A stretch of 64,000 bases of DNA. Origin: Flavobacteriaceae bacterium (GTDB lineage Bacteria > Bacteroidota > Bacteroidia > Flavobacteriales > Flavobacteriaceae). Below are positions 33,593 to 55,335 of the stretch, piece by piece; position 1 is the stretch's first letter; each line of letters begins with the position of its first letter. The DNA is taken from positions 12,313-76,312 of the forward strand of contig PACV01000007.1 of assembly GCA_002702875.1 (NCBI GenBank), written 5' to 3'. The position numbers and the translations under genes were made by a program. Below the pieces are notes generated by a model, which made no database searches, was not told the origin of the DNA, and saw nothing but the letters and a program-made list of their open reading frames with translations.

Positions 33593-33898
33593 GTGTCAAA
33601 GTTCGGCCAATTAATTGATGAAAAAATTCCTTTATTGTTAGTCTTTTATGATTTAAACAGTATTGAAGACAATTTTATGGATTTAAGTCCAATACTAAAA
33701 GATGTGGCTGCAGCACTTGGTGATAAAGGAAAAGTAATAAAAATTGATATAAATAAAAATAATGAAATTTCTCAAGCACTTAGAATTAGAGTTTTACCAA
33801 CATTAATAATTTACAAAAATGGTGAAATGGTTTGGAGACAAAGTGGGCAACAAGACGCAAATACACTTATTGGATTAATGAATGAGAACTTAAACTAA
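33593..33898 (+). CDS. thioredoxin-fold protein lacking the CxxC active site (no cysteine at all)
   Basis: Collinear with classical thioredoxin (PILKDVAAALGDKGKVIKIDINKN..., cis-Pro region VLPTLIIYKNGE). The WCGPC position reads LNSIEDNF, and the 101-aa product contains no Cys. GTG start. Confidence 0.75.
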   Translation: MSKFGQLIDEKIPLLLVFYDLNSIEDNFMDLSPILKDVAAALGDKGKVIKIDINKNNEISQALRIRVLPTLIIYKNGEMVWRQSGQQDANTLIGLMNENLN

Positions 33899-38303: not shown

Positions 38304-40478
<2,175 letters not shown>

Positions 40479-40556: not shown

Positions 40557-41513
40557 ATGGGAGTTAGATTTTTGTTTAATTTTTTCCTGATTTCATACAT
40601 TGCCATTGGTCAAAATGATTACATAGAATATATTCCAAATACAAAAGAAAAATTACCAATGATCTTTATAAAAGGTGGTAATTTTATGATGGGAAGCGAA
40701 AAAAGCGAAATCGGGCATTTTGGAGATGAGGGGCCGAAACATGAGGTTAAAATCGATGCATTTTGGATTGGAAAATTTGAAATTACATGGAATTTATATA
40801 ATTTATTTGTATCTAGAGAGATAGATCAATATCAAAGGAGTAAAAGTAATTCCGACGAGGTTTCAATTGATGTGGATGCTGTAACCGGAGCTACAACACC
40901 TTATGTAGAAATGAGTTTTGGAATGGGTGTCGACGATTTTCCAGCAATAAGTATGACTCAACTTGCCGCTTCAAAATTTTGTGAATGGCTATCAGCAATG
41001 ACGGGAAATTTTTATAGATTACCAACTGAGGCTGAGTGGGAATATGCTTGTAGGGCTGGAAGTGATTCTGCCTTTAACTTTGGAGACGACATTTCAAAAC
41101 TAAAAGATTATGCCTGGTATGATGAAAATAGTGAAGACAAATACCAAAAAGTTGGTACAAAAAACCCCAATGATTGGGGTATTCACGATATGCACGGAAA
41201 TGTAGCAGAATGGACATTAGATCAGTATAGTCCAATATCTTATCGACAAAGAAAGGATAAACTAACAGAAAATCCATTTGTTGAACCTATCAAAGTTTAT
41301 CCCAGAGTTGTAAAAGGTGGTTCATGGATGGACAATCAAAAAAGACTTAGAAGTGCGTCAAGAAGGGGTTCTTCAAAACAATGGAAAAGGCAAGATCCTC
41401 AAATTCCAAAAAGTCTATGGTGGCATACAGATGCTCAATTTTTGGGATTTAGAGTTATTAGACCATTAAATACTCCATCTGAAAAATTACAAAAAAAATA
41501 TTGGGGTTATTAA
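40557..41513 (+). CDS. exported FGE-sulfatase (SUMF1/DUF323) domain protein lacking the catalytic cysteine pair
   Basis: Signal peptide, GHFGDEGPKHEVKIDAFWIGKFEIT, RLPTEAEWEYACRAG, HDMHGNVAEW, GGSWMDNQKRLRSASR, LGFRVIRP. Where true FGEs carry C-x4-C, this protein has no Cys. Confidence 0.8.
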   Translation: MGVRFLFNFFLISYIAIGQNDYIEYIPNTKEKLPMIFIKGGNFMMGSEKSEIGHFGDEGPKHEVKIDAFWIGKFEITWNLYNLFVSREIDQYQRSKSNSDEVSIDVDAVTGATTPYVEMSFGMGVDDFPAISMTQLAASKFCEWLSAMTGNFYRLPTEAEWEYACRAGSDSAFNFGDDISKLKDYAWYDENSEDKYQKVGTKNPNDWGIHDMHGNVAEWTLDQYSPISYRQRKDKLTENPFVEPIKVYPRVVKGGSWMDNQKRLRSASRRGSSKQWKRQDPQIPKSLWWHTDAQFLGFRVIRPLNTPSEKLQKKYWGY

Positions 41514-41607
41514 CTAGAAATTATTTAAATTTAGATATATGCTTTTAAGTTTCTCATATAAAAATTGTGAGTACTATGAAGCTAATATGTAAAAAACGAA
41601 AAACAAA

Positions 41608-42921
41608 ATGAAAAATTTAAGAAAAAATTCACGAAGATCATTTGTAAAAAAATCTGCTCTTGCAACTGGTGTTGTTCTAGCCAATCCTTTTTTTTCAGAA
41701 GCTATGGTTAATTCATCCTCCGAAAAAAAACTAAAAATCTCTGTTATTGGTTGTGGAGGTAGAGGTTCAGGTGCAGCTGTTCAAGCTTTGAAAGCTGATA
41801 AAAATGTTGAGTTAGTTTCTATGGCAGACGCTTTTAGAGACAGAATTGACAAAAGTTTAAAGGGAATTATCGACAGTTTCGAAGGTCAAAAAAACATAAA
41901 TGTAAAAGAAAAAAATAAATTTGTAGGCTTTGATGCATACAAAAAAGCCATCGATAAATCAGACGTTGTAATTCTTGCTACTCCACCAGGTTTCAGACCC
42001 TATCATTTTGAATATGCTATAAAAAACAACAAACATGTTTTTATGGAAAAACCGCTAGCTACAGATCCAGCCGGTGTTAGAAAAGTTTTGGAGTCCGCAA
42101 AAGTGGCTAAACAAAAAAAACTAAACGTGGTTGTTGGTTTACAAAGGCATTACCAAACTAAATATTTAGAGTTTAAGAAACTTGTTGATAGTGGAAAAAT
42201 TGGAAAAATCATTGGGGGTCAAGTTTATTGGAACGATGGAGGTGTTTGGACTAACAAAAGAAAACCAAATCAAACTGAATTAGAATATCAAATGAGAAAT
42301 TGGTATTATTTTAATTGGCTTTGCGGAGATCATATTCTTGAGCAACATATTCACAACATTGATGTAGCTAATTGGTTTATTGGCGAATATCCTGTTTCAG
42401 CACAAGGTATGGGTGGTAGACAAGTTAGAAATGGAAAAGAACATGGTGAAATTTATGATCATCATTTTGTCGAATTTACATACCCAAGCGGAGCTGTAAT
42501 TTCAAGTCAATGTAGACATATCAGAGGGTGTATGAATAGGGTTGACGAAGCTTTTCAAGGGACTAAGGGATCATTGGAAATTGGAAGAGGAATTATCAAA
42601 GACTTGGATGGAAATATTAATTTTAAATATCCAAGAAGAATGGACCCAAACCCATATCAGGTAGAACATGATAAATTATTTTCTTCAATTAGAAGTGGTG
42701 GTGTAATATCAGATACTGAAAATGGAGCTAAAAGTACATTGGCTGCTATTTTAGGTAGAATGGCTACTTATACTGGAAAAAAATTAACATTTGACCAAGT
42801 TATGAAGTCTAAGCAAAAGTTAGTTCCAGAGAATATGAATTGGGATTCAACTCCTCCAACTCTTCCTGATTCAAATGGATATTATGAAATCCCTACCCCT
42901 GGGAAAACTAAATTTATATAG
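41608..42921 (+). CDS. Tat-exported Gfo/Idh/MocA family oxidoreductase
   Basis: Twin-arginine signal (SRRSFVKKSALATGVVLA), Rossmann motif VIGCGGRGSG, the EKP motif (FMEKPLA), and NWYYFNWLCGDHILEQHIHNIDV, typical of the periplasmic Planctomycete/Bacteroidota subgroup. Confidence 0.85.
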   Translation: MKNLRKNSRRSFVKKSALATGVVLANPFFSEAMVNSSSEKKLKISVIGCGGRGSGAAVQALKADKNVELVSMADAFRDRIDKSLKGIIDSFEGQKNINVKEKNKFVGFDAYKKAIDKSDVVILATPPGFRPYHFEYAIKNNKHVFMEKPLATDPAGVRKVLESAKVAKQKKLNVVVGLQRHYQTKYLEFKKLVDSGKIGKIIGGQVYWNDGGVWTNKRKPNQTELEYQMRNWYYFNWLCGDHILEQHIHNIDVANWFIGEYPVSAQGMGGRQVRNGKEHGEIYDHHFVEFTYPSGAVISSQCRHIRGCMNRVDEAFQGTKGSLEIGRGIIKDLDGNINFKYPRRMDPNPYQVEHDKLFSSIRSGGVISDTENGAKSTLAAILGRMATYTGKKLTFDQVMKSKQKLVPENMNWDSTPPTLPDSNGYYEIPTPGKTKFI

Positions 42922-43839
42922 ATGCAAAGAAGAGATTTTAATTCACTAATTGGATTGTCAAGTATAGGCTTAATGTCTTATGCAACCCCTATTTCCCATA
43001 ACAGGAAAATTATTAAAAAACATAATTTTAATCTTAATTATGCCCCTCACTTAGGAATGTTTAAACATCATGTTGGAAATGACCCAATTGATCAGTTAAA
43101 TTTTATGGCAGACATTGGTTTTAAAGCTTTTGAAGATAATGATATGAGAAATAGAGATGTCTCCCTTCAAAAGAAGATGTCTATTACTATGCAAAAAAGA
43201 GATATAAAAATGGGGGTTTTTGTAGCTCATCAGATTTATTGGAATAAACCTACTTTAACTACTGGTAAAAAAAAATATATTGATGAATTTTTGAATTATA
43301 TTCAAAAAGCAGTTGATGTTGCAAAAATAGTAAATGCTAAATGGATTACAGTTGTCCCTGGGCATTTGGACTTAAGGCAAAATGTTGCTTACCAAACATC
43401 AAATGTTGTTGAAGTATTGAAAAAAGCCTCTGGGATTTTAGAACCTCATGGTCTAGTAATGGTTTTAGAACCATTAAATTTTAGAGATCATCCAGGTCTT
43501 TTTTTAACTAAAAGCCCCCAAGCTTATGAAATTTGTAAGACAGTTAATTCTCCTTCATGTAAAATTTTATTTGATATATATCACCAACAAATTCAGGAAG
43601 GAAATTTAATTCCTAACATTGAAAAATGTTGGGATGAGATTGGGTACTTTCAAATTGGAGATAATCCAGGAAGAAAAGAACCTAATTCTGGGGAAATTAA
43701 TTATAGAAATATTTTTAAATATATTCACAGTAGGGGATTTAATGGGATTTTAGGCATGGAACATGGTAATTCGAAAAGAGGAAAAGAAGGTGAAGAACTC
43801 TTAATATCTGCTTACAAAAATGTCGATAACTTTATTTAA
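42922..43839 (+). CDS. exported xylose-isomerase-like TIM-barrel protein (hydroxypyruvate isomerase-like)
   Basis: Tat-like N-terminus (MQRRDFNSLIGLSSIGLMS). Hyi-like motifs LEPLN...HPG, FDIYHQQIQEGNL, FQIGDNPGRKEPNSGEINY, GMEHG. The ATG directly abuts the stop codon of the upstream oxidoreductase gene. Confidence 0.8.
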   Translation: MQRRDFNSLIGLSSIGLMSYATPISHNRKIIKKHNFNLNYAPHLGMFKHHVGNDPIDQLNFMADIGFKAFEDNDMRNRDVSLQKKMSITMQKRDIKMGVFVAHQIYWNKPTLTTGKKKYIDEFLNYIQKAVDVAKIVNAKWITVVPGHLDLRQNVAYQTSNVVEVLKKASGILEPHGLVMVLEPLNFRDHPGLFLTKSPQAYEICKTVNSPSCKILFDIYHQQIQEGNLIPNIEKCWDEIGYFQIGDNPGRKEPNSGEINYRNIFKYIHSRGFNGILGMEHGNSKRGKEGEELLISAYKNVDNFI

Positions 43840-43848
43840 AATTAGTAT

Positions 43849-45219
43849 TCAAATTCCCAAAAATATTTGTTTATCTGAATTTTCCAAATTGAACTTATCT
43901 ACTTCATTTTTTGTAACATTGGTTTTCCATAAATAAATTTTTTTTAGTTTCTTAAATTCGACAAGATTTTCAAAAATTAAATTTGAAACATTTGTACCAT
44001 ATAAATTAATTTTTTCCAAGTTTTCAAGATTTTTAAGAAACTTGATTCCATCATCAGATATATTACTATTATTATTAATATCTAAATTAACAAGATTGTA
44101 TAAATCAGATATTTTCTGAAGATTGTCGTTTGTTAGTTTACAATTAGTCATGGAAAGAGATACTATATGATTACTGAATTTTTTAAGTTTTAAAATTTTT
44201 TCATCATCAATCTTTTTACCAGTAAATTTTATTTCAAGTAATTCATAATTGTCAGAAATGAAATTCCATTTAAATTCACTTTTTTCTAGTACTTCTAATT
44301 CATCTATATTGATTTTTGGTAAATCTTTTAATTTTTCATAATACGGCTTTGGATTCATATTAATCTTGTAAAGCTTTTCAAGAAGTGATTTTTCTTCACC
44401 TGACAATTTAAGTTCAGATAGTTTCAAGTCAGAATTTAAATATTTATCAATCCACCACTTTATTAGATTAATTTCATCATAAGTTAATGGTATCCCAGTT
44501 GGGGGCATAAATTTTTTATTGTCTTGAGAGAGGGTGGCTCTTTGAAAAATCAAACTTTTACTGGAGTTACCTGCTATAATTGATTTTCCCGATAGACCTC
44601 CATTTTTAATATCTTTTATTGTAAGCATATTTAATCCACCCGACTTTATATTTTGATTATGACAGTCAATGCATTTATTTTCAAAAACAGGTAAAATTAA
44701 ATCAGTGAAAATTTTAATCGAATCAATTTCTGAATTTTCATAGTATTTTACATTTTTTTTCTCCTGAAAAAAATTATTGATGTTACTTGGTAAATACTCA
44801 TATAAATAATTTTTACCATGAGTTATATTTGCTCCTTGATGACCTACTATCACAAGAGTTAATATCACAAGAAAATTGATAAAAAAATCCTGTTTTTTAA
44901 ATAGATTTAAAATATTTGATTTAATTAACCACCCAATGAAAGTTAGAAAAAGTAAGAAAACTCCACTCCACTTGTGTAATGAAATCTGATTTTCAATATA
45001 ATAACCATTTAATGTTAATAGCCAACCAAAAATAACAGCAAAAATTGAAGTAATAAGCCCCATCATCCAGCAAAATGCAATTACTTTTCTGTGAATTCTT
45101 AGTTTTATAATATTAGTGTAGGTTTCAATGAGAATTCCTAGAAAAATAAAACCAATTGGAAAATGAACTATAAGTGGATGAAATCTTCCCAAAAAAGTTG
45201 ATATTTCAATAGAAAACAT
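43849..45219 (-). CDS. membrane protein: DUF2231-like 4-TM domain + c-type cytochrome domain (PSCyt1-like) + leucine-rich repeats
   Basis: N-terminus FHPLIVHFPIGF with further conserved His in TM segments, the heme-c motif CIDCH followed by SGGLNM, and a C-terminal LRR block (LSMTNCKLTNDNLQKISDLYNLVNLDINNNSNISDDGIKFLKNLENLEKINLYGTNV). Confidence 0.75.
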   Translation of the reverse strand: MFSIEISTFLGRFHPLIVHFPIGFIFLGILIETYTNIIKLRIHRKVIAFCWMMGLITSIFAVIFGWLLTLNGYYIENQISLHKWSGVFLLFLTFIGWLIKSNILNLFKKQDFFINFLVILTLVIVGHQGANITHGKNYLYEYLPSNINNFFQEKKNVKYYENSEIDSIKIFTDLILPVFENKCIDCHNQNIKSGGLNMLTIKDIKNGGLSGKSIIAGNSSKSLIFQRATLSQDNKKFMPPTGIPLTYDEINLIKWWIDKYLNSDLKLSELKLSGEEKSLLEKLYKINMNPKPYYEKLKDLPKINIDELEVLEKSEFKWNFISDNYELLEIKFTGKKIDDEKILKLKKFSNHIVSLSMTNCKLTNDNLQKISDLYNLVNLDINNNSNISDDGIKFLKNLENLEKINLYGTNVSNLIFENLVEFKKLKKIYLWKTNVTKNEVDKFNLENSDKQIFLGI

Positions 45220-45222
45220 AAT

Positions 45223-46272
45223 TTAAACTCTAGTTAATTTTAATGGATAAGTTTTTTTTGAGTTCCATTGAGGTACATATATATTTTCATCTTCGTCAAC
45301 ACAAACGTCATGTGGATTTAAAAATGATTTTTTATCTGAAATAGGAGGAGTTAATAGATTATTTGAATACTCTGGTTTATTTCCTCCAGGTAATGATACA
45401 ACTTTATTATTTCTATCTAATACTGCTAACATACCATCATATTTATCCCAACTCTTAGTTACAATAACAGCGAAAAATAAATTACCATCTTTTATAACAG
45501 GTCTACAAATCCAACAACCTGGCAAGGATATTGTTTCTTTATAAATACCATCTAATGTAAATCTTTTAAATTCATTTTTTGATCTTGAGGTGATTAAAAG
45601 TGAAATATTTTTTTTATCTCTGGTATCAATTGTTATACCATGGCAACAATCAAAATTTTCATTTTTATCTCCTTTTCCTCCAAAATGTCCTATATAATTT
45701 CCATTTGAATCATAACGAATAATAAAATCTTTACCATAACCATCTGCGACATATATATCACCGTTTGGAGCAATACAAGTTTCAGTAGGTTTAAAATCTT
45801 TTTCAGAATTATAATCTTTGATTTCTTTAGGATAATTTAATTCAAAGATTTTTTTTCCATTAATTGTAGTTTTACACACCTTGTGATTTTCAGGGTCAGT
45901 TATAAATAAAAACTCGTCATCACCTTCATTTAAAATTGAAAGACCATGCGCTCCGTTATAATTAATTGACCAGGAATCTTCTATTTTACCTGATCTGTCA
46001 AAAATTAAAATATTATTTTTTGGATGAGTAGTTGTCATTAAAATTCTATTTTTTTTATCAATCACCATCTCATGACAATGATCAATAGGAAATTTTTTGA
46101 AATTTTGTATTCCCCAGTTTTTATCAATTACATATTTAAAATTTCCATGACCAACAACCAAATTATCCATTTTTAAATTTTTTTTTATTGCAAAAACGCT
46201 TTTACTTAAACCAACTGATAATCCAGCTAGAGTTGATTTTTTTAAAAAACTTCGTCTTGAATTTTTTTTCAT
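45223..46272 (-). CDS. Tat-exported six-bladed beta-propeller protein (NHL/PAL-like)
   Basis: Twin-arginine signal (SRRSFLKKSTLAGLSVGL). Repeated blade-like segments (HCHEMVIDKKNRI, GAHGLSILNEG..FLFITD, DIYVADGYG, CCHGITIDTRD, NPHDVCVDEDENIYV). Confidence 0.7.
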   Translation of the reverse strand: MKKNSRRSFLKKSTLAGLSVGLSKSVFAIKKNLKMDNLVVGHGNFKYVIDKNWGIQNFKKFPIDHCHEMVIDKKNRILMTTTHPKNNILIFDRSGKIEDSWSINYNGAHGLSILNEGDDEFLFITDPENHKVCKTTINGKKIFELNYPKEIKDYNSEKDFKPTETCIAPNGDIYVADGYGKDFIIRYDSNGNYIGHFGGKGDKNENFDCCHGITIDTRDKKNISLLITSRSKNEFKRFTLDGIYKETISLPGCWICRPVIKDGNLFFAVIVTKSWDKYDGMLAVLDRNNKVVSLPGGNKPEYSNNLLTPPISDKKSFLNPHDVCVDEDENIYVPQWNSKKTYPLKLTRV

Positions 46273-46276
46273 TTTT

Positions 46277-47719
46277 TTATGATAAAATTTCTTTAACTAT
46301 CTCACCATGTACATCTGTTAATCTGTAACGTCTTCCTTGATGTTTAAATGTTAGTCTTTCATGATCAATACCTAAAAGATGCATCAAAGTAGCTTGAAAA
46401 TCGTGTACATGAACTGGACGTTCCTTTATATTATACCCAAAATCGTCCGTTGATCCTATTGTTATACCCTTTTTAATTCCAGCCCCTGCCATAAATATTG
46501 TAAAGCATTTAGGGTGATGATCTCTTCCGTAATTAGTTTTAGTTAAAGTACCTTGTGAATAGGACCCCCTTCCGAATTCACCTCCCCATATAACAAGAGT
46601 TTCATCTAATAGACCTCTTTGTTTTAAGTCTTTAATTAAACCTGCTGTTGGTTGATCAGTATCTTTACACTGAACTTTAATTGCATTAGGTAGGTCCCCA
46701 TGTTGGTCCCAACCTTGATGGTATAATTGAACAAACTTTACATCTTTTTCAATTAATTTTCTGGCAAGTAAACAGTTTGCTGCAAAGCTTCCGGGGTTTC
46801 TACTCTCTTTACCATATAGATCATAAATATATTCAGGTTCTTTGGATACATCCATAACCTCAGGGACTGATGATTGCATTCTAAAGGCCATTTCATATTG
46901 AGACATTCTTGATAGTATTTCTGGATCTCCAACATCTCTATGATTTATTTTTTCTAATTTTTTTAAATATTCGAGTTGTTCCTTTCTTATATCTGCTGTA
47001 ACACCAGGTGGATTATCTAAGTAAAGAACAGGATTTTTTCCAGATCTAAACTGAACACCTTGGTGTTTTGATGGTAAAAAACCATTTCCCCATAAACGAG
47101 AATAAAGTGGTTGACCAAATTTATCTTTTGTTACCAGTACAACAAATTCTGGTAAGTTTTTATTGTCACTTCCTAATCCATAACTTATCCATGAACCAAT
47201 TGAAGGTCTCCCTGGAAGTTCGGATCCTGTTTGAAGAAAAGTAACAGCAGGATCATGGTTTATTGCCTCAGTGTACATTGACTTTATAAAACACAAATCA
47301 TCGACAATTTGAGATGTATAGGGCATCAGTTCACTCATCCAAGCTCCACTTTTTCCAAACTTTTTAAATTTAAATATTGATCCAGCTAATGGAAAACTTG
47401 ATTGACCTGAACTCATTCCAGTTAGTCGTTGGCCACCTCTAACACTGTCAGGAAGCTCCGTTCCATTTAATTTATTTAGTAAGGGTTTGTAGTCAAAAAG
47501 ATCTAGTTGAGACGGAGCACCACTTTGCAAAAGATAAATAACTCTTTTGGCTTTAGCAGGAAAATGAGGTAATCTGTTATTAATATAATTACTTTGAGAG
47601 TATAAACTTGATGGACTAATTAATGATCCAACAGTTAATGCACCCATTCCTAGTGACGTTTTAGTAAGAAAATCTCTTCTAGAAAATTTATAATTATGTT
47701 TGTGATTATTACAATTCAT
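46277..47719 (-). CDS. DUF1501 family protein (alkaline-phosphatase/sulfatase-fold), Tat-exported
   Basis: Twin-arginine signal (SRRDFLTKTSLGMGALTV). The DUF1501 pattern VIYLLQSGAPSQLDLFDYKP, GWDQHGDL, WGGEFGR, GRDHHP. There is no (C/S)xPxR sulfatase motif. Confidence 0.85.
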   Translation of the reverse strand: MNCNNHKHNYKFSRRDFLTKTSLGMGALTVGSLISPSSLYSQSNYINNRLPHFPAKAKRVIYLLQSGAPSQLDLFDYKPLLNKLNGTELPDSVRGGQRLTGMSSGQSSFPLAGSIFKFKKFGKSGAWMSELMPYTSQIVDDLCFIKSMYTEAINHDPAVTFLQTGSELPGRPSIGSWISYGLGSDNKNLPEFVVLVTKDKFGQPLYSRLWGNGFLPSKHQGVQFRSGKNPVLYLDNPPGVTADIRKEQLEYLKKLEKINHRDVGDPEILSRMSQYEMAFRMQSSVPEVMDVSKEPEYIYDLYGKESRNPGSFAANCLLARKLIEKDVKFVQLYHQGWDQHGDLPNAIKVQCKDTDQPTAGLIKDLKQRGLLDETLVIWGGEFGRGSYSQGTLTKTNYGRDHHPKCFTIFMAGAGIKKGITIGSTDDFGYNIKERPVHVHDFQATLMHLLGIDHERLTFKHQGRRYRLTDVHGEIVKEILS

Positions 47720-47720
47720 A

Positions 47721-50700
47721 TTATCTTTTTAAATAGGTTTCGTCATGATTCAAAATAGTGTTTGAGACCATGGTTAAAGCAGCAGTTCTGTATTTGTTTA
47801 GTGATCTGTCAAATTTTTTATCTCCAACTTTAAGTATTTGATTTGTCATTTTTGGATTTGATTTGTAGAATTTAAGTTGTGATTCGTATAGCTCTTTTAA
47901 AAGTTTTAGTTCCTCATCCTTGGGGTTTCTGGAAATTGCAAGCCTAAAACCATATTTAATTTGATCCAAGTAATTTTCTCCTCCTTCTTTTTGGATTCTT
48001 TCAGCCAAAATCCTAGATGCCTCAAAAAATTGAGGGTCATTCATTAGTACCAAAGCCTGAAGTGGAGTATTAGTCTTTTCTCTTCTAACTGTGCAGACTT
48101 CTCTAGATGTTCCATCAAGTGCAATCATTGAAGGTGGAGGGGAAGTTCTTTTTATGAATGTATACATTCCTCTTCTGTATAGACTATCTCCAGAATTTTT
48201 TTTGTAGTTATACAAGTCAGCTGAAAAACTATTTTTTTCTAACCATAATCCATCAGGCTGATACGGTTTAACGCTAGGACCACCAACTTTTTTGACTAAT
48301 AAACCGCTAGAGGCAAGTGCATTATCCCTAATAATTTCTGCAGGTAGTTTATATGAATTACTTCTGGCAAGGAAAAAGTTATTTGGATCAATTTCATTTA
48401 GTTTATCATTACTATTTGATTTTTGTTGATATACATGAGACATCACCATTAGTTTGATTAATTTTTTTATATTCCAATTGTTATTAATTAGATAAATTGA
48501 CAACCAATCTAAAAGTTCAGGATGACTAGGCAACATTCCTTGAACACCAAAATCCTCTGGTGTTCTTACAAGACCAAAACCAAAAATCATTTGCCAATAT
48601 CTATTAACTGTAACTCTAGATGTTAAAGGGTTTTCATTTGAAAATAACCATTTTGCCAATCCAAGTCTGTTTTTGGGTAAAGATGAATCCATTTTTGGTA
48701 AATTCTCAGGAACATCTGTTCCAACTTTATGTGAAGGTTCCAAATAACTTCCTCTATTTAAAAGATAATTGTCTCTCGGTTTTTTCATTTCCTCCATTAC
48801 CATTACTTCAATTACTGGCTCCATTATTTTTAGCCAATTTTTTCTTAAAGTTGAAAGTTTAGCTTTATTTCTTAATATTTTGTAGTCAGATTCTATCCAA
48901 TGATTTTTTATTACAGTTTCATTTACATTTCTTTTAGAGATATCATATGAATTAAAAAGACTTAATGATTCTAAGTTTGTCATGTCTTTAGAGAAAAGAT
49001 ATATATCATCTATTTTTCCTGAAAATAAACCTTTGTCACCTGAATGGTACATCCCTGATCTTCCAACTCGAAGAGGTCTGATATCCTTTTTTCTTACATT
49101 TAAAGGAAATCCGGTCTGAGATTTTTTTCCAACAGGAATAGGGTGTATAGATTTATATAAATTATCCATTTTTACATCAAGATTAGCTTCTTTTCCATTT
49201 ATAAAAATTCTTATACCACTTGATTTAGCTGATCCATTATATGAAAATGTTATGTGATTCCAGGTATCTTTTTCAATTACGTTACTAGATTTAACATGAA
49301 TCAAATTAGTTGGAAGGACATTAATTAGCCTCATGTTAATATAGTTTTCATTATCTAGATATATATCCCAACCTCTCCAAAAATCATTTTTTTGCCCACT
49401 TGTTCCAAGAACATGTTGTGTTTTTTCAGGATTCATATCATCAGTATTTATCCAAAAAGAACCTGAAAAAGAATCATTAGTCTCAAAATTTGGAACTTTT
49501 TCAAGATTCAAATAATCAATGTCAGTTGAAAATTTTAAAGCCTTATCTTTTATTCCATCTACAACTTCAGCTTTTGATTGTGATTTAGCATAAAAGTTGT
49601 TATCAACTATAAATATTTTTTTATTATTAGAATTATTAGATTTTTTTATTTTGTCTAGTGGGTAGTGTCCAATTAAATAATTTGATTTTAAATTTTTTAT
49701 AATATTTTTCTCACTGGAATTTTTGTTTTTAAGATTTTCTACATAACTATAGAATTCTCGTAATTCATTTTTTTGAATATTAATTTCTTTTTCTTTATCG
49801 TCTATTTTGGTTTTAATTTGACTAATTTCATTTTCTTTCTCCTTACTTGGCATGGGTAAAAGGGGGCCAAAATCTCCGTCATCTCCTGTCATCCCTAATT
49901 CTTTAATATTATTAAAAAAGGATGCAAGTTGATAATAATCCCTTTGTGAAATTGGATCAAATTTATGATCGTGACATTTTGCACAAGCAACAGTTAATCC
50001 TAAAAAAGCAGTACTGAGGGTTTCTGTTCTGTCAAATACATAATGAAGTCTCCACTCCTCATCTATTGCACCTCCCTCAGCAGTCATAGGAGAATTTCTA
50101 TTAAAAGCTGTTGCTAATTTTTGTTCTCGAGTAGGATTTTGAAATAAATCACCGGCAATTTGCCAAGTCACAAATTGATCATAAGGCATATTTTTTTCAA
50201 ATGAGTTTATTACCCAATCTCTCCATGGCCACATTGTTCTAGCTCCATCAGCATGTAATCCATGAGAATCTGCATATCTTGAAAGGTCTAGCCAGTCAAG
50301 AGTCAACATTTCAGCGTGAGCAACTGAATTTAAAAATCTGTCAACTACCTTTTCATATGCATTAGGGCTATTATCATTTAAAAAGTCGTCAATTTCATCT
50401 ATTGACGGAGGGAGTCCTCTTAAATCCATAGATACTCTTCTTAACAATCTTTCTTTGGATGCCTTTTCAGAAAATTTTAAGTTTAATTTTTTTAATTTTC
50501 GATTTACAAAGTAATCAATTTCATTATTAATTTTTGAATCAACATAGATGTTTTCTGGAATTTGAGGAATTTTTGGTTTGATAAATGACCAATGTTCTTT
50601 CCATTTCGCACCTTGGTCAATCCATCTTAAAATCAAAGCTTTTTCATTGTCTGAAAGACTGAGTTTTGATTCAGGAGGAGGCATTTGATCTAGAGGATCA

Positions 50701-51017
50701 TTGCTTAATATTCTGTGAGCAACTTCACTTTTATAAATACTAGATGATGAAAAAGCTTTCTTCCCACTTGCCAATTTAGAAAAGGCAATTTCTTCAATGT
50801 CTAATCTAAGACCTGCCTTTCTAGTCTTTGAGTCTGGCCCATGACATTGAAAACATCGATCCGACAAAATTGGTTTTATATGATAGTTAAAATCTATTTC
50901 TTCAGTTAAGTTTGAGTATTCGGTTTGTACTTTGTCAGGGATAGATAATGTACACGATTGAATAATAAAAGTTGACAAAAATAATAATAAACTAGCTTTA
51001 CTAATTAAATGACTCAT
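47721..51017 (-). CDS. large exported protein: heme-c domain (PSCyt2-type CxxCH) + DUF1549 + LamG-like insert + DUF1553/PSD1
   Basis: Signal/lipobox-like N-terminus (FIIQSC), CFQCHGPD, the hallmark CAKCHDHKFDPISQRDYY, a LamG-like segment (SFSGSFWIN...WNHITFSYNG...GKIDDIYLFS) and a C-terminal PSD1-like region (ALVLMNDPQFFEASRILAERI). 1098 aa. Confidence 0.85.
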   Translation of the reverse strand: MSHLISKASLLLFLSTFIIQSCTLSIPDKVQTEYSNLTEEIDFNYHIKPILSDRCFQCHGPDSKTRKAGLRLDIEEIAFSKLASGKKAFSSSSIYKSEVAHRILSNDPLDQMPPPESKLSLSDNEKALILRWIDQGAKWKEHWSFIKPKIPQIPENIYVDSKINNEIDYFVNRKLKKLNLKFSEKASKERLLRRVSMDLRGLPPSIDEIDDFLNDNSPNAYEKVVDRFLNSVAHAEMLTLDWLDLSRYADSHGLHADGARTMWPWRDWVINSFEKNMPYDQFVTWQIAGDLFQNPTREQKLATAFNRNSPMTAEGGAIDEEWRLHYVFDRTETLSTAFLGLTVACAKCHDHKFDPISQRDYYQLASFFNNIKELGMTGDDGDFGPLLPMPSKEKENEISQIKTKIDDKEKEINIQKNELREFYSYVENLKNKNSSEKNIIKNLKSNYLIGHYPLDKIKKSNNSNNKKIFIVDNNFYAKSQSKAEVVDGIKDKALKFSTDIDYLNLEKVPNFETNDSFSGSFWINTDDMNPEKTQHVLGTSGQKNDFWRGWDIYLDNENYINMRLINVLPTNLIHVKSSNVIEKDTWNHITFSYNGSAKSSGIRIFINGKEANLDVKMDNLYKSIHPIPVGKKSQTGFPLNVRKKDIRPLRVGRSGMYHSGDKGLFSGKIDDIYLFSKDMTNLESLSLFNSYDISKRNVNETVIKNHWIESDYKILRNKAKLSTLRKNWLKIMEPVIEVMVMEEMKKPRDNYLLNRGSYLEPSHKVGTDVPENLPKMDSSLPKNRLGLAKWLFSNENPLTSRVTVNRYWQMIFGFGLVRTPEDFGVQGMLPSHPELLDWLSIYLINNNWNIKKLIKLMVMSHVYQQKSNSNDKLNEIDPNNFFLARSNSYKLPAEIIRDNALASSGLLVKKVGGPSVKPYQPDGLWLEKNSFSADLYNYKKNSGDSLYRRGMYTFIKRTSPPPSMIALDGTSREVCTVRREKTNTPLQALVLMNDPQFFEASRILAERIQKEGGENYLDQIKYGFRLAISRNPKDEELKLLKELYESQLKFYKSNPKMTNQILKVGDKKFDRSLNKYRTAALTMVSNTILNHDETYLKR

Positions 51018-51037: not shown

Positions 51038-51820
51038 TTAATTAAAAATTGAATTTAGAACATGCGCTAACCTAAGACCTCCCATTAAGAGTCTTGATTT
51101 TACAGTATTCAAATATTTGTATCTATATTCAAAGCCCAAATTTGAATTTTCTTTAGCATCATTGTATATACTGTCTGCTATATTTTGAGATTCCGTGACC
51201 CAATCTAAAATATTTGATTTTTTGATTCTATCAATTTCTGTTTCCCCTAGGATTGGTAAATCTTTTGATAATTCTGTGTAACTCATTTGGTGACTATTAA
51301 TTATTTGGCTATCCCAGACTCTATGTAAATTTGTTTGTACTCCAAACCATCTAACCTTTATATCGTTTCCACCTCTGTCCTCCTTTCTTCCAACGTGTAA
51401 AGGTTGATGAACATCTCCAATAAAGTGAACAAGTAGTTTTAAATAAAAACTTTTATCCTTTTTATTGTAATTTTTGTCACTTAATATTTCAATACATTTA
51501 TATATGGCCACTATTACATCTCCATTTTTATTCTTGTTTTTTGTATCGTAATTTTCTCCAGATTTAATATTTACGTAATGCCAGGGGTTAAATTTTTTAT
51601 ATTTTGGATCAGACTTAATATCATCAGCAAATGTAGATACGCTAGCTAGTGATTTACCATTTAAAAGATTTTTAATTGATTTTTTTGCTTTTTCAGTTAA
51701 ATAATTTTCAGCGATTTGACCAACTACTCTGTGACCAGTGGCACCCCATATCTCATTTGATTTATCAAACGAGGTGTTTGAAATGTATATTAGAAATAAT
51801 ATTAAAAATCTTAAAAACAC
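51038..51820 (-). CDS. S1/P1 family nuclease, exported
   Basis: WGATGHRVVGQIAE at the mature N-terminus, HFIGDVHQPLHVG, NLHRVWD. GTG start. It ends 20 nt upstream of the heme-c/DUF1549 gene on the same strand. Confidence 0.88.
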   Translation of the reverse strand: MFLRFLILFLIYISNTSFDKSNEIWGATGHRVVGQIAENYLTEKAKKSIKNLLNGKSLASVSTFADDIKSDPKYKKFNPWHYVNIKSGENYDTKNKNKNGDVIVAIYKCIEILSDKNYNKKDKSFYLKLLVHFIGDVHQPLHVGRKEDRGGNDIKVRWFGVQTNLHRVWDSQIINSHQMSYTELSKDLPILGETEIDRIKKSNILDWVTESQNIADSIYNDAKENSNLGFEYRYKYLNTVKSRLLMGGLRLAHVLNSIFN

Positions 51821-53844: not shown

Positions 53845-55335
53845 ATGAAATTTAAAATTTTATTAGTCATTTTAATAGGGACTTTAATTTCTTGTCAAAA
53901 TATACAAACTGAAAATAAAAAATATGAGGCTAAATGGAGTTCATTGTCTAAGCACAACGAGTCACCACAATGGTTTAAAGATTCTAAGTTTGGAATATAT
54001 TTTCATTGGGGAGTTTATTCAGTCCCAGAATTTAATAGTGAATGGTATCCTAGGAATATGCATTTAAAAGATCATAAGGTATATAAATATCATTTAGAAA
54101 ATTATGGTCATCCAAGTGAATTTGGTTATCATGATTTTGTCCCTATGTTTAAGGCAGAAAAGTTTAATAGTTCTGAATGGGCAAGATTATTTAAAGATGC
54201 AGGAGCAAAGTTCGCTGGACCTGTTGCTGAGCATCATGACGGTTTTTCAATGTGGGCTAGCAAGGTTTCCCCATGGAATGTTTATGACAAAGGTCCAAAA
54301 AAGGATATTATGATGGAATTGAAAAATTCAATAGAAGAAAATGACATGAAATTTATTGCTACATTTCACCATGCTAAACACTTACAAAGGAGTAAAACGA
54401 TTAATCAAGAAAATCCTTTGAGCCATTATCCTTTTTTAGATGATATGCCAACAAGTTCTAATGACCCTGAATTATCGCTTTTATATGGAAACATGGATGA
54501 AAATAAATGGTACGAAAATATATGGTTTGGCAAATTAAAAGAGGTAATTGATAATTACAGTCCTGACATAATTTGGTTTGATTATGTTCTTGATGAAATT
54601 CCTGAAAAATTTAGAAAAAAATTTGCAGCTTATTATCTAAATAATTCAAATGATAAGGAAGTAGTAATTGTTAGAAAACAACATGATTTACCTCAATCAT
54701 TAAGTATTGAAGATTTAGAGCAATCAAGAAAAAATGAAATTGGTAATAAGACATGGATGACTGATGCGACAGTTAGTGATGGAAGCTGGTCTTACACAAA
54801 AAATCTAAAGGTCAAATCAGCTAGTAAAGTTTTGCACATGTTAATTGACATAGTAAGTAAAAATGGAGTTTTGTTATTAAATGTGTCACCAAAGGCAAAT
54901 GGAGAAATTCCAAAAAATCAAATAGAAGTACTTGAATCAATGGGAAGGTGGTTAAAGAAGAATGGAGAATCAATTTATGGGACAGAGGCATGGTATAGAT
55001 TTGGAGAGGGGCCAACAGTACAACCTGAAGGTCATTTTAAAAACAGAGATATTTTTCATAAACTTGAGTACAGTTCAAAAGATATAAGGTACACAGTAAA
55101 AAACTACGATATTTATGCTATTTTTTTAGGAGAGATAAAGGGAAATCAAAAAGTAATTTTAAAATCATTTTCAAAGGAAGCCATAACTGACTTGGTAAGA
55201 GTCAAAGATGTTGAGCTATTAGAAACAAGAAATAAATTAAATTGGAATCTTGAGAGTGATGGTCTTCATATAGAAATTCCTGATGGTAAATATGACGAAT
55301 TAGCCTCTGTTATAAAAATTACAACAGATGGTTAA
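53845..55335 (+). CDS. alpha-L-fucosidase (GH29), lipoprotein
   Basis: Lipobox LISC, FGIYFHWGVYSVPEFNSEWY, AKFAGPVAEHHDGFSMW, WFDY. C-terminal beta-sandwich domain. Confidence 0.9.
   Translation: MKFKILLVILIGTLISCQNIQTENKKYEAKWSSLSKHNESPQWFKDSKFGIYFHWGVYSVPEFNSEWYPRNMHLKDHKVYKYHLENYGHPSEFGYHDFVPMFKAEKFNSSEWARLFKDAGAKFAGPVAEHHDGFSMWASKVSPWNVYDKGPKKDIMMELKNSIEENDMKFIATFHHAKHLQRSKTINQENPLSHYPFLDDMPTSSNDPELSLLYGNMDENKWYENIWFGKLKEVIDNYSPDIIWFDYVLDEIPEKFRKKFAAYYLNNSNDKEVVIVRKQHDLPQSLSIEDLEQSRKNEIGNKTWMTDATVSDGSWSYTKNLKVKSASKVLHMLIDIVSKNGVLLLNVSPKANGEIPKNQIEVLESMGRWLKKNGESIYGTEAWYRFGEGPTVQPEGHFKNRDIFHKLEYSSKDIRYTVKNYDIYAIFLGEIKGNQKVILKSFSKEAITDLVRVKDVELLETRNKLNWNLESDGLHIEIPDGKYDELASVIKITTDG

Follow-up and report, generated by a model that had tools for sequence, protein, structure and literature searches.

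Four adjacent genes on the minus strand of a Flavobacteriaceae MAG may encode a periplasmic, membrane-wired redox enzyme complex that acts on a glycan-type substrate. We give this reading a probability of roughly 0.45, its chemistry being the part that we infer. The genes, whose products are MAU88380-MAU88383, occupy positions 43849-51017 of the window, i.e., the whole stretch of 64,000 nucleotides that was analyzed. They follow one another in the order g1-g2-g3-g4, and the ORF list confirmed the co-directional arrangement reported in a preliminary description, with intergenic gaps of 1, 4 and 3 nt. The domain make-up given there for the four proteins was recovered with Pfam, and the streamlined, low-GC setting was borne out by the GC-content of the window (0.23-0.34). 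All the data are compatible with a proposal made there, a membrane-wired machine of hydrolytic or redox type. One module was present in the 64-kb window, and close variants of g2, g3 and g4 (shared 90%-identity clusters) were found on a 1.87 Mb contig.

Spacers are short across the whole window: for example, 9 nt lie between two convergent stop codons, at 43839 and 43849. Upstream, g1 has an unrelated gene, for an S1/P1 nuclease, whose end lies 20 nt away. Pfam identified an FGE-family gene at 40557-41513, 2.3 kb from the module, whose product is as similar to GldK/PvdO-type proteins as to FGE, and katG is located at 38316-40478, 3.4 kb from the module.

Domain composition of the four proteins

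The protein g1 is predicted to be a Sec-exported lipoprotein: its signal is of the lipoprotein type and Cys22 is nearly invariant in an alignment of 34 orthologues (A6). Pfam placed PSCyt1 at residues 55-116 (E 7.5e-13), PSCyt2/DUF1549 at residues 166-372 (E 9e-82) and Laminin_G_3 at residues 501-615 (E 7e-13), so that the LamG-like insert lies, as first described, between DUF1549 and DUF1553 (residues 783-1043). The CFQCH motif was found near the N-terminus as expected; C55, C58 and H59 are invariant in the 34 orthologues, as are M112 and P113 of an MPPP motif. The operon had been said to carry two CxxCH motifs, which proved wrong: a further motif in the PSCyt2 domain of g1, CAKCH, had been overlooked and brings the predicted c-heme sites of the operon to three. 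Around this motif, C345, C348, H349, D350, H351, K352, D354 and P355 are invariant in the same alignment. The AF2 model of g1 (pLDDT 69.8) presents helical PSCyt2 and PSD1 domains and a beta-sandwich at residues 448-675, and its lowest confidence falls exactly on the most conserved segments. Foldseek matched the beta-sandwich to tetanus toxin Hc, CBM40, sialidase lectin domains and pentraxin in the PDB (E down to 5e-7). For PSD1, the sequence search returned no relative of solved structure and none was present among the 50 Foldseek matches listed, all of lectin type. Pfam and PDB searches returned no similarity of g1 to CcpA/MauG.

We classify g2 as a Tat-exported putative enzyme of the alkaline-phosphatase superfamily. 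The twin-arginine signals noted earlier on g2 (FSRRDFL) and g3 (NSRRSFL) both passed the TIGR01409 cutoff (respectively, 17.9 and 20.3 bits; cutoff 16.7). The invariant DUF1501 residues of g2 include D338, H340, E381, D400, H401 and H402, which are compatible with a metal site. When 26 DUF1501 sequences were compared with 15 classical sulfatases using hhalign, residues 350-464 of g2 alone aligned (93% probability), leaving the sulfatase C/S-x-P-x-R signature and the N-terminal Asp-Asp metal motif unaligned. Pfam Sulfatase (PF00884) scored 15.2 bits on g2 relative to a cutoff of 25, and the NCBI label of identical proteins is "sulfatase".

The propeller g3 had been viewed as exported in folded form, which its Tat signal supports, but a metal lyase like PAL (peptidyl-alpha-hydroxyglycine amidating lyase, EC 4.3.2.5) describes it better than a generic scaffold, given its active-site residues and the IMG name of its orthologues (peptidylamidoglycolate lyase). 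The PAL structure 3fvz was the top PDB match of the single g3 sequence (E 3.9e-7), and H109, Y179, H211, R230, H321 and D322 are invariant in 20 orthologues. In the single-sequence PDB search, H109, Y179, H321 and D322 align with PAL H585, Y654, H786 and D787. H211 and R230 align with PAL H690 and R706 in a second alignment, for which PAL residues 186-287 were reconstructed and which gives the same coordinates and score as the PDB search with the g3 family profile. We take H585, H690 and H786 to be the zinc ligands of PAL, Tyr654 its catalytic residue, Arg706 its substrate arginine and Asp787 its calcium-binding residue, as reportedly described by Chufan et al. in 2009. Judged by these alignments, g3 would lack none of the catalytic residues of PAL (zinc ligands, tyrosine and arginine). 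With the g3 family profile, the NHL domains of TRIM/Thin, which are non-enzymatic, outscored PAL, and the PAL reading of g3 therefore rests on the active-site residues rather than on overall similarity.

Finally, g4 is a predicted inner-membrane protein with a mono-heme cytochrome c domain, expected in the periplasm, followed by an LRR arc. DUF2231 (PF09990) scored 33.6 bits relative to a gathering cutoff of 26.4, the AF2 model presents four long helices (pLDDT about 70-97), and the positive-inside count places both termini outside, as the cytochrome c domain requires. On the periplasmic side, His14, His19, His82, His127 (and His134) are invariant in 43 sequences, and four of these five histidines are retained in six distant architectural variants, as read by eye. 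Searches of solved structures gave no significant analogue of the DUF2231 fold and its cofactor is therefore a guess. The CIDCH motif noted after the four-TM domain was confirmed, and C183, C186, H187, F237, M238, P239 and P240 are invariant in alignments A1 and A7. The LRR tail attributed to this cytochrome is sub-threshold in single-sequence Pfam searches, yet the family profile matched PDB LRR proteins with E-values of 4e-14 to 1e-11. In relatives of g4, the DUF2231 anchor is followed by two, three or six PSCyt1 domains, and these proteins look like membrane-anchored heme chains; some relatives have F5_F8_type_C and CHB_HEX_C domains at the C-terminus. The products of the module are all predicted to face the periplasm.

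Table 1. Positions of the genes, domains and motifs of the module in the window.
Feature	Position	Strand	Evidence
g1, PSCyt1 + PSCyt2 (DUF1549) + coiled coil + LamG-like + PSD1 (DUF1553) lipoprotein (predicted), 1098 aa	47721..51017	-	ORF list, Pfam
g1 Cys22, lipobox cysteine (IIQSC)	50952..50954	-	sequence
g1 heme motif 1, CFQCH, residues 55-59, in PSCyt1	50841..50855	-	sequence
g1 heme motif 2, CAKCH, residues 345-349, in PSCyt2	49971..49985	-	sequence
g1 LamG/ConA-like beta-sandwich, residues 448-675, putative carbohydrate-binding insert	48993..49676	-	Laminin_G_3 (Pfam), AF2 strands
g1 PSD1/DUF1553 helical domain, residues 783-1043	47889..48671	-	Pfam E 4e-96
g2, Tat-exported (predicted) DUF1501 protein, alkaline-phosphatase/sulfatase superfamily, 480 aa	46277..47719	-	DUF1501 E 2.7e-154 (Pfam)
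g2 Tat signal FSRRDFL, residues 12-18	47666-47686	-	sequence, TIGR01409
g3, Tat-exported (predicted) NHL six-bladed propeller, PAL-like putative metal-dependent lyase, 349 aa	45223..46272	-	Pfam NHL
g4, DUF2231 four-helix anchor + PSCyt1 + LRR, membrane cytochrome (predicted), 456 aa	43849..45219	-	ORF list, Pfam, alignments A1, A7
g4 DUF2231, residues 13-136, four TM helices, N-out	44812..45183	-	hydropathy, positive-inside count
g4 PSCyt1 cytochrome c domain	44494..44673	-	Pfam E 1.5e-10
g4 CIDCH heme motif, residues 183-187	44659-44673	-	sequence; FMPP at residues 237-240
g4 C-terminal LRR arc, about residues 320-456	43852..44262	-	family profile vs PDB

Conservation of the module in Bacteroidota

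We analyzed gene order at 50 species-representative loci of Bacteroidota whose upstream flank measured 7 kb or more. A g4 homologue adjoins the PSCyt1/PSCyt2/PSD1 and DUF1501 pair in 46 of these loci: in 43 loci g1-g2 lie upstream of g4 and share its strand, and in three others g1 is found downstream of g4, together with g2 where the sequence extends far enough. The g3 gene is adjacent in 29/50 loci (about 58%), sometimes downstream of g4. These counts indicate that g1-g2-g4 is the conserved core and that g3 is facultative; the four-gene synteny initially proposed thus stands for the former unit and not for g3 as a constant part. Because g3 and g4 can each occur alone, without g1/g2, neither is strictly dependent on the pair.

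The module was found in Flavobacteriaceae, Cyclobacteriaceae and Cytophagales. Two short contigs hold part of it, g2-g4 in Chitinophagaceae and g3-g4 in Saprospiraceae, and 79 of 80 related loci are labelled Bacteroidota. This conservation across families shows that the arrangement exceeds chance. Several cultured species possess the order g1-g2-g3-g4 (Eudoraea adriatica DSM 19308, Cellulophaga omnivescoria, Tamlana fucoidanivorans, Maribacter algarum and Ulvibacterium marinum), and cultured Echinicola arenosa presents g1-g2-g4-g3. The CxxCH motifs had been expected to be conserved among orthologues, and all three are invariant (34 g1 and 43 g4 sequences), as are both PSCyt1 Met-Pro motifs of g1 and g4. 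Genomes with two modules have a distinct g4 for each: the two copies of Ulvibacterium share 36% identity, and the nearest relative of the second is the g4 encoded with a g1 of the same type. Across loci, pairwise identity in g1 rises with that in g4 (r = 0.70; P ≤ 0.001; Mantel test, uncorrected for species phylogeny). Classical sulfatases were observed within 10 kb of the module in 21 of 81 loci and inside it in two, and at one locus (L087) the module lies among 3-keto-disaccharide-hydrolase and GFO/GH109 genes.

Relation to described systems

Genomes of the PVC (Planctomycetes-Verrucomicrobia-Chlamydiae) superphylum may carry PSCyt genes by the dozen. For this superphylum, the g1/g2 pair has been known since 2012 as a conserved module without an assigned function (Kamneva 2012, PMC3542564). 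Laminin_G_3 variants were described in that study along with an analogous cluster of four genes, one of them for a second PSCyt1 protein; the study also noted that PVC versions carry carbohydrate-binding domains, already listed "a few Bacteroidetes" and singled out PSCyt1/PSCyt2/PSD1 with DUF1501 as a module deserving functional study (PMC3542564). PSCyt genes occur in large numbers in some Verrucomicrobia genomes and are enriched in genomes of the oxic water layer (He 2017, PMC5615132). In our literature searches, we found no account of the g4 and g3 extension of Bacteroidota, no functional study of, or function for, PSCyt1/PSCyt2/PSD1 and DUF1501 proteins, and no characterized orthologue of the cluster. 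The designation of an undescribed system can thus be kept for the DUF2231-cytochrome-LRR and NHL extension, which appears new, but not for the pair (PMC3542564); the newly described part appears to be this extension in Bacteroidota alone.

The module of the window combines a PSCyt1, PSCyt2 and PSD1 protein with a Tat-signal DUF1501 protein across the 1-nt gap. Like the PVC modules (PMC3542564; PMC5615132), it presents both core families side by side, a twin-arginine signal on DUF1501 and an optional Laminin_G_3 insert in the cytochrome protein. The most complex PVC cluster (DUF1501 / PPC protein / PSCyt1-Big_2-PSCyt2-PSD1 / PSCyt1-WD40) also has a second PSCyt1 protein fused to an interaction domain, WD40 there and LRR here; PPC, Big_2 and WD40 gave zero Pfam matches in g1-g4 even at E ≤ 10. 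Unlike the PVC modules, that of the window belongs to a member of Bacteroidota, has its second cytochrome embedded in the membrane by way of DUF2231 and includes a PAL-like NHL propeller; the window holds one copy where some Verrucomicrobia genomes hold large numbers (PMC5615132). The DUF1800-DUF1501 operons of Proteobacteria, sometimes located within polysaccharide (chitin synthase) gene clusters, similarly pair a Tat-exported DUF1501 protein with a large helical protein whose function is likewise unassigned, but DUF1800 lacks heme motifs and neither membrane cytochrome nor propeller is reported there (Goncalves 2016, PMC5122149).

Individual proteins also resemble characterized systems. The PAL domain (PDB 3fvz) shares with g3 a six-bladed NHL fold, with its zinc His, Tyr, Arg and Asp matched by invariant residues, and in peptidylglycine alpha-amidating monooxygenase (PAM) the lyase acts after an oxidative hydroxylation step. 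However, g3 is bacterial and Tat-exported, its overall similarity to PAL is low (E 4e-7 to 4e-13) and it has no copper monooxygenase (PHM) partner, in whose place the heme proteins would serve as any upstream oxidant. Among enzymes of the alkaline-phosphatase superfamily, formylglycine-dependent sulfatases can be aligned with the C-terminal core of g2, its Asp/His clusters are compatible with a metal site and its predicted location is likewise periplasmic, whereas the signature and Asp-Asp motif do not align and the Pfam Sulfatase score remains at 15 vs 25 bits. As in membrane-anchored cytochrome c and glycoside 3-dehydrogenase-cytochrome systems, a periplasmic heme c is tethered and encoded with a periplasmic enzyme, but the g4 anchor is a four-helix DUF2231 with a histidine cluster rather than a single helix, and an LRR docking module is present.

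Proposed function and alternatives

We propose that g1 and g2 would form the catalytic pair: the LamG domain of g1 may hold a carbohydrate or glycoconjugate, its two hemes would relay electrons and g2 would provide a metal-dependent active site. The LRR arc of g4 could dock its cognate g1/g2, and the g4 heme c together with the DUF2231 histidine site (for heme b, a metal or a quinone) would join the g1/g2 hemes to the respiratory chain, with electrons possibly flowing in either direction. The oxidative step would yield an alpha-hydroxylated intermediate of the carbinolamide or hemiacetal type for g3 to cleave. The PAL reaction runs spontaneously above neutral pH (PMC6529398); spontaneous breakdown of such intermediates would account for the modules, about 40%, that dispense with g3. 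Joint action of the products is supported by the short gaps, the conserved synteny, the distinct g4 of each module and the correlated g1 and g4 identities, and the topology of g4 suits its cytochrome c domain. The redox component is supported by the three invariant CxxCH motifs, the two invariant Met-Pro motifs and the multi-PSCyt1 relatives of g4. The link to glycans is supported by the lectin/CBM matches of the g1 LamG domain, the lectin-type tails of g4 relatives, the carbohydrate-binding domains of PVC versions (PMC3542564), the nearby sulfatases and the context of L087, and a role of g2 as an enzyme by its very strong DUF1501 match and the alignment of its C-terminal core to sulfatases. 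In its most specific form, a phosphatase-fold subunit would be redox-coupled via three c hemes to a heme b/quinone DUF2231, with alpha-hydroxylation and then PAL-like cleavage removing a substituent of algal glycans or glycoconjugates, and in such detail the proposal is unlikely to be correct.

Alternatively, the complex could be purely hydrolytic or a transferase, with g2 as a sulfo-/phospho-esterase or a glycan-modifying transferase (phosphoethanolamine transferase-like), g1 as substrate scaffold, the hemes as structural elements or redox sensors and g4 as a mere membrane tether. The superfamily of g2, its NCBI label, the recurrence of classical sulfatases near modules and the lectin-like domain of g1 all fit this scenario. 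DUF1501 partners the heme-less DUF1800 in Proteobacteria, which suggests that its core chemistry may not be redox, and we know of no precedent for redox catalysis in the alkaline-phosphatase superfamily. We nevertheless consider it rather unlikely: the three heme motifs are invariant, up to six heme domains in g4 relatives are hard to explain without electron transfer, and the sulfatase signature and N-terminal metal motif are unaligned in g2. Related sulfatases require oxidative maturation, and the redox chain might serve activation rather than catalysis, the g1/g4 hemes oxidizing a g2 residue after export in a formylglycine-like manner. Each g2 has its own g1 and an FGE-family gene is found 2.3 kb away, but that gene is not conserved near the module and is equally GldK/PvdO-like. 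A 1098-aa maturase and a membrane cytochrome for each enzyme copy would be costly, g2 would already be folded at export since it is Tat-exported, and hhalign revealed no Cys/Ser at a recognizable sulfatase motif. Such a maturation system is quite improbable.

The membrane anchor, the three c hemes, the katG gene 3.4 kb away and the enrichment of PSCyt genes in oxic-layer genomes (PMC5615132) would also fit a quinol-driven periplasmic peroxidase or reductase, with electrons passing from the quinone pool through g4 and the g1 hemes to peroxide or another oxidant, as modelled on membrane-bound quinol peroxidases or di-heme CcpA/MauG enzymes. This would leave g2, LamG and g3 without a role, g1 lacks CcpA/MauG similarity in Pfam or PDB searches, and katG was found near the module in just one of 84 loci, all of which make it very unlikely. 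Genome compactness could by itself have brought together four genes that do no joint work, as the short spacers of the window (e.g., the 9 nt between stops 43839 and 43849) and the nuclease gene 20 nt upstream of g1 might suggest. However, genomes that are large and not streamlined, from several Bacteroidota families, show the same order and strand, and neither the nuclease nor the convergent neighbours are retained beside the module. The synteny data already contradict this explanation, which is extremely improbable.

If the most specific form of the redox proposal holds, the module would represent a new class of periplasmic enzyme coupled to the respiratory chain, and the PSCyt/DUF1501 proteins, whose families are very large in Planctomycetes, Verrucomicrobia and Bacteroidota, would gain their first function. 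DUF2231 gains a concrete hypothesis, as a membrane anchor for periplasmic heme chains. The copy in the window comes from a streamlined marine flavobacterium that is abundant, and it includes a membrane cytochrome of its own and a recognizable putative lyase. Since the module, with both of these proteins, is present in cultured strains, the question of its function is directly testable.

Organization and conservation of the four-gene module

We analyzed four minus-strand genes of the window (g1 to g4; coordinates in the table below) separated by intergenic gaps of 1 nt (g1/g2), 4 nt (g2/g3) and 3 nt (g3/g4). The same protein sequences are deposited as MAU88380-MAU88383 for a Flavobacteriaceae MAG of marine origin, where they bear the names hypothetical protein, sulfatase, 6-bladed beta-propeller and hypothetical protein, respectively. 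Close variants, belonging to the 90%-identity clusters of g2, g3 and g4, were found on a contig of 1.87 Mb and on numerous contigs from ocean metagenomes. All the domain names assigned to the four proteins in the preliminary description were borne out by Pfam, or by a family profile for the leucine-rich repeats (LRR) of g4, and the Tat signals that it placed on g2 and g3 both scored above the TIGR01409 cutoff; apart from these signals, none of the four proteins had an informative NCBIfam model. Of the CxxCH heme motifs, the two reported initially (CFQCH in g1 and CIDCH in g4) are real but the count was too low: a motif scan revealed a third one, CAKCH, inside the PSCyt2 domain of g1. The GC-content of the window ranges from 0.23 to 0.34. 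Scans for sigma-70 promoters and intrinsic terminators between positions 43000 and 52800 yielded counts no higher than those of shuffled sequence, which says nothing for or against co-transcription because the scan model does not cover Bacteroidota promoters.

Genes of the module and neighboring features of the window
Feature	Positions	Strand	Description
g1	47721-51017	minus	1098 aa; PSCyt1, PSCyt2/DUF1549, Laminin_G_3, PSD1/DUF1553 (ORF list, Pfam)
g2	46277-47719	minus	480 aa; DUF1501 (ORF list, Pfam)
g3	45223-46272	minus	349 aa; NHL repeats (ORF list, Pfam)
g4	43849-45219	minus	456 aa; DUF2231, PSCyt1 (ORF list, Pfam)
Large protein	33895-37443	minus	1182 aa; N-terminal TMEM260-like protein O-mannosyltransferase domain (E 8e-68)
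KatG	38316-40478		Putative catalase-peroxidase, assigned from its sequence
Convergent trio	40557-43839	plus	Signal-peptide FGE/GldK/PvdO-like protein; Tat-signal GFO/IDH/MocA oxidoreductase; xylose-isomerase-like TIM-barrel protein (MQRRDF...)
Nuclease	51038-51820	minus	S1/P1 nuclease
Fucosidase	53845-55335		GH29 (Pfam)

The distribution of the module was analyzed by scanning one genome per species for relatives of g4, which yielded at least 556 relatives. The best 80 of these loci were examined and all but one carry Bacteroidota labels; the single exception probably represents a mis-binned contig. Using tblastn with the proteins of the window, we found homologues of g1 and g2 immediately upstream of g4 and on the same strand in most of these 80 loci. 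For 50 loci the upstream flank measured 7 kb or more, and in these the order g1-g2-g3-g4 was the most frequent (20/50), followed by g1-g2-g4 (15/50) and g1-g2-g4-g3 (6/50). Two loci contain one gene between g3 and g4 (g1-g2-g3-(one gene)-g4), three present the order g4-g1(-g2), one contains g3-g4 and three were scored as g4 alone, one of the latter being actually adjoined by a divergent g1-g2 pair. From these counts, g1-g2-g4 is the conserved core, and g3 is frequent yet facultative. In Maribacter algarum and one oceanic lineage of Flavobacteriaceae, Pfam-labeled gene calls recovered these four genes as well. Full modules are present in Flavobacteriaceae, Cyclobacteriaceae and Cytophagales, and partial modules (g2-g4 or g3-g4) were found on short contigs of Chitinophagaceae and Saprospiraceae. 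Among cultured bacteria, Cellulophaga omnivescoria, Tamlana fucoidanivorans, Eudoraea adriatica, Echinicola and Maribacter algarum possess the module.

We further compared pairwise protein identities across loci and observed a correlation of r = 0.92 between g1 and g2 and of r = 0.70 between g1 and g4 (Mantel P <= 0.001), values that still include the shared species phylogeny. Genomes with two modules carry two distinct g4 genes: in Ulvibacterium marinum the two g4 copies are 36% identical, and the second one is most similar to the g4 found with the same type of g1 in another genome. The link between g4 and the module is not absolute. A single chromosomal slot located between two Mur-ligase-family genes, beside ExbBD, contains g1-g2-g3-g4 and an FMN dehydrogenase in Maribacter algarum (L002), only g4 in Zobellia (L001, L012) and only g3 in Euzebyella marina (L085) and in a related metagenome contig (L086). 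It looks as though the module had decayed piece by piece and left individual genes behind.

The genes also differ in their divergence between close relatives. Relative to L007, a related single-cell genome, DNA identity reaches 0.82-0.91 over g1-g2, 0.62-0.75 over g3 and 0.51-0.64 over g4, and it drops sharply at the g2/g3 boundary (46200-46350). In another related locus (L043), the drop is located at the g3/g4 boundary (45219-45223). Protein identities for g1, g2, g3 and g4 are, respectively, 88, 95, 67 and 39% with L007 and 80, 90, 70 and 38% with L043. These patterns suggest that the operon is a mosaic, with cassette-like replacement of g4 (and g3) between close relatives.

Predicted properties of the four proteins

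A lipoprotein signal is present in the g1 protein, and its Cys22 is almost invariant. Both heme motifs of g1 are invariant across 34 orthologues (C55, C58 and H59; C345, C348 and H349), as are the methionine of the PSCyt1 MPPP motif and the DHKxDP sequence that follows the second heme motif. PDB sequence searches returned no solved relative of g1. Its AlphaFold2 model (pLDDT 69.8) presents helical PSCyt2 and PSD1 domains, a long coiled coil (392-425) and a beta-sandwich (448-675). Foldseek matches were limited to the sandwich and are all of the carbohydrate-binding or lectin type (tetanus toxin Hc, a CBM40 module, lectin domains of sialidases, and pentraxins); the 50 matches listed include no analogue of PSCyt2 or PSD1.

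No solved relative of g2 was found by PDB sequence search either. When the g2 profile was aligned to those of 15 classical sulfatases, the C-terminal core alone aligned (93% probability); no alignment was obtained for the signature motif of sulfatases, and Pfam Sulfatase remained below threshold. We therefore reject g2 as a canonical sulfatase and place it as a predicted member of the alkaline-phosphatase superfamily, outside the formylglycine sulfatases.

The best PDB match of the single g3 sequence is the peptidyl-alpha-hydroxyglycine amidating lyase (PAL) domain of peptidylglycine amidating monooxygenase (3fvz; E 3.9e-7). With a family profile, the non-enzymatic NHL domains of TRIM/Thin scored higher than PAL (1.6e-18 vs 4e-13), and the reading of g3 as a PAL-like putative lyase rests on its active-site residues. 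In the 3fvz alignment, H109, Y179, H321 and D322 of g3 correspond to H585, Y654, H786 and D787 of PAL. Two additional residues, H211 and R230, were matched to H690 and R706 by a local hmmsearch in which residues 186-287 of the PAL chain were a reconstruction; this search reproduced the coordinates of the family-profile PDB search (88-249 aligned to 71-235), with a score of 51.9 vs 52.2 bits. We take these six PAL residues to be those of the active site, and their g3 counterparts are all invariant in 20 orthologues. Several orthologues of g3 are independently named peptidylamidoglycolate lyase in IMG. PAL is a zinc-dependent six-bladed propeller that cleaves the C-alpha-N bond of alpha-hydroxylated glycine, a reaction that, at pH values above neutral, also takes place spontaneously (PMC6529398).

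Hydropathy and the positive-inside rule predict four transmembrane helices in g4 with both ends outside, and AlphaFold2 models four long helices (pLDDT ~70-97). The heme motif (C183, C186, H187), the F237-M238-P239-P240 stretch and five histidines of DUF2231 (H14, H19, H82, H127 and H134) are invariant in 43 g4 sequences. Given the predicted topology, all five histidines would lie at the periplasmic face; in six distant architectural variants inspected by eye, the first four are retained and H134 is variable. Searches of DUF2231 against PDB sequences returned only spurious matches to EmrE and designed proteins, and Foldseek found nothing significant for residues 1-290 (best E 2.6), the matches to cytochrome b561, NarI and cytochrome c' being at chance level. 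The LRR tail, weak in the single sequence, becomes unambiguous once solved structures are searched with a family profile built from 16 sequences (E 4e-14).

Among 1.84 billion representative proteins, 5,513 relatives of g4 were found at E <= 1e-30, and the same full-length architecture is present in more than 100 50%-identity clusters. Longer relatives carry DUF2231 followed by six PSCyt1 domains, or two or three PSCyt1 domains separated by LRR tracts, and look like membrane-anchored heme chains. In other relatives the g4 architecture comes with additional carbohydrate-binding domains (CHB_HEX_C/Fn3_assoc and F5_F8_type_C), a putative link between the g4 family and glycans. The variant proteins that we identified are P0435, P0420, P0495, P0537, P0549, P0558 and P0563, and two of the variants with multiple PSCyt1 domains and LRRs present Pro/Ala-rich linkers.

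Neighboring genes

We found no general additional member of the operon among 85 same-strand extension ORFs. Lactamase_B_2 and VCA0040-like genes were each found in 6 loci. A gene of the FMN-dependent dehydrogenase family (FMN_dh, alpha-hydroxy-acid dehydrogenase; E ~1e-114) lies directly 3' of g4 in five loci of a single Maribacter/Ulvibacterium clade (L002, L009, L011, L014 and L020). Glycolate oxidases belong to this family and PAL releases glyoxylate as a by-product, which provides a tenuous chemical link between FMN_dh and PAL. Of 81 loci, 21 have a classical sulfatase no more than 10 kb away, and in two it is located inside the module. Two loci contain an extra same-strand gene between g3 and g4 (L036:8260-9933 and L076:8496-9932); the former belongs to the BLAST-defined group of classical sulfatases, and the latter is probably the second of the two Pfam Sulfatase members found among the extension genes. 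A variant order was observed at L087:6993-17053: a fatty-acid-hydroxylase-superfamily gene, g3, a 3-keto-disaccharide hydrolase (DUF1080), a Kazal-domain protein, g1, g2, g4 and a GFO/GH109-like oxidoreductase. There, g1 encodes 913 aa without LamG and is overlapped by g2 over 8 nt, and the direct pairing of a hydroxylase with a putative lyase echoes the PHM-PAL logic.

In the window itself, a spacer of 20 nt separates the end of the S1/P1 nuclease gene from the start codon of g1, which lies downstream on the same strand. The nuclease gene may be co-transcribed with the module; it is not present in any related locus and was rejected as a member. On the other side, the three co-directional genes of the convergent trio, which resembles periplasmic 3-keto-sugar pathways, converge on g4 (stop codons 43839 and 43849 are only 9 nt apart). 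These genes are missing from related loci and were also rejected, the exception being L041, where homologues of the GFO and TIM-barrel genes (62-63% identity) lie ~8 kb from the module. The TMEM260-like domain seems unusual for a bacterium with so small a genome.

Relation to known systems and proposed function

In the PVC superphylum, genes encoding DUF1501 beside PSCyt1/PSCyt2/PSD1 genes were described as forming a conserved module with no known function, some versions of which contain Laminin_G_3 or F5_F8_type_C inserts; the most complex cluster contains DUF1501, a PPC protein, PSCyt1-Big_2-PSCyt2-PSD1 and PSCyt1-WD40 (Kamneva et al. 2012; PMC3542564). In Proteobacteria, DUF1501 also pairs with DUF1800, a combination likewise of unknown function (PMC5122149). 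Our full-text literature searches for DUF1501, DUF1549, DUF1553, DUF2231, PSCyt and DUF1800 returned no functional study, nor any description of a DUF2231-PSCyt1-LRR or NHL partner. The module of the window is a member of the PSCyt/DUF1501 kind, in a Bacteroidota variant. It falls outside the definition of the PVC four-gene cluster and differs from that cluster in having a membrane-embedded second cytochrome and an additional PAL-like lyase.

All four products face the periplasm. The tightly linked genes encode three conserved predicted heme c motifs, a lectin-like domain in g1, a phosphatase-superfamily protein (g2), a propeller with a complete PAL-type active site (g3) and a membrane anchor with a conserved histidine cluster (g4). 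We propose that g1 and g2 would form a catalytic pair acting on a glycan-type substrate, that the LRR arc of g4 would dock it onto g1/g2, that g4 would carry electrons between the hemes of g1/g2 and the membrane, and that g3 would cleave an alpha-hydroxylated intermediate. We give this general reading (catalytic pair, electron link to the membrane and lyase) a probability of roughly 0.45. The specific chemistry of oxidative cleavage appears unlikely. The alpha-hydroxylated intermediate would also decay spontaneously at seawater pH, which would explain why g3 is optional.

The main alternative is a non-redox esterase or transferase complex with accessory hemes, which is favored by the pairing of DUF1501 in other phyla with DUF1800 proteins that lack heme. 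However, the heme domains are invariant here and are multiplied in the relatives of g4, and we consider this alternative unlikely. The interpretation initially given to these genes, a putative periplasmic hydrolytic or redox machine wired to the membrane, survived the tests that could be run. The observation itself holds up and is not trivial; it adds to a module to which the literature had already drawn attention and does not define a wholly new system. With a compact form of the module present as one copy in the window and found also in cultured strains, these genes are useful for addressing a long-standing unknown.
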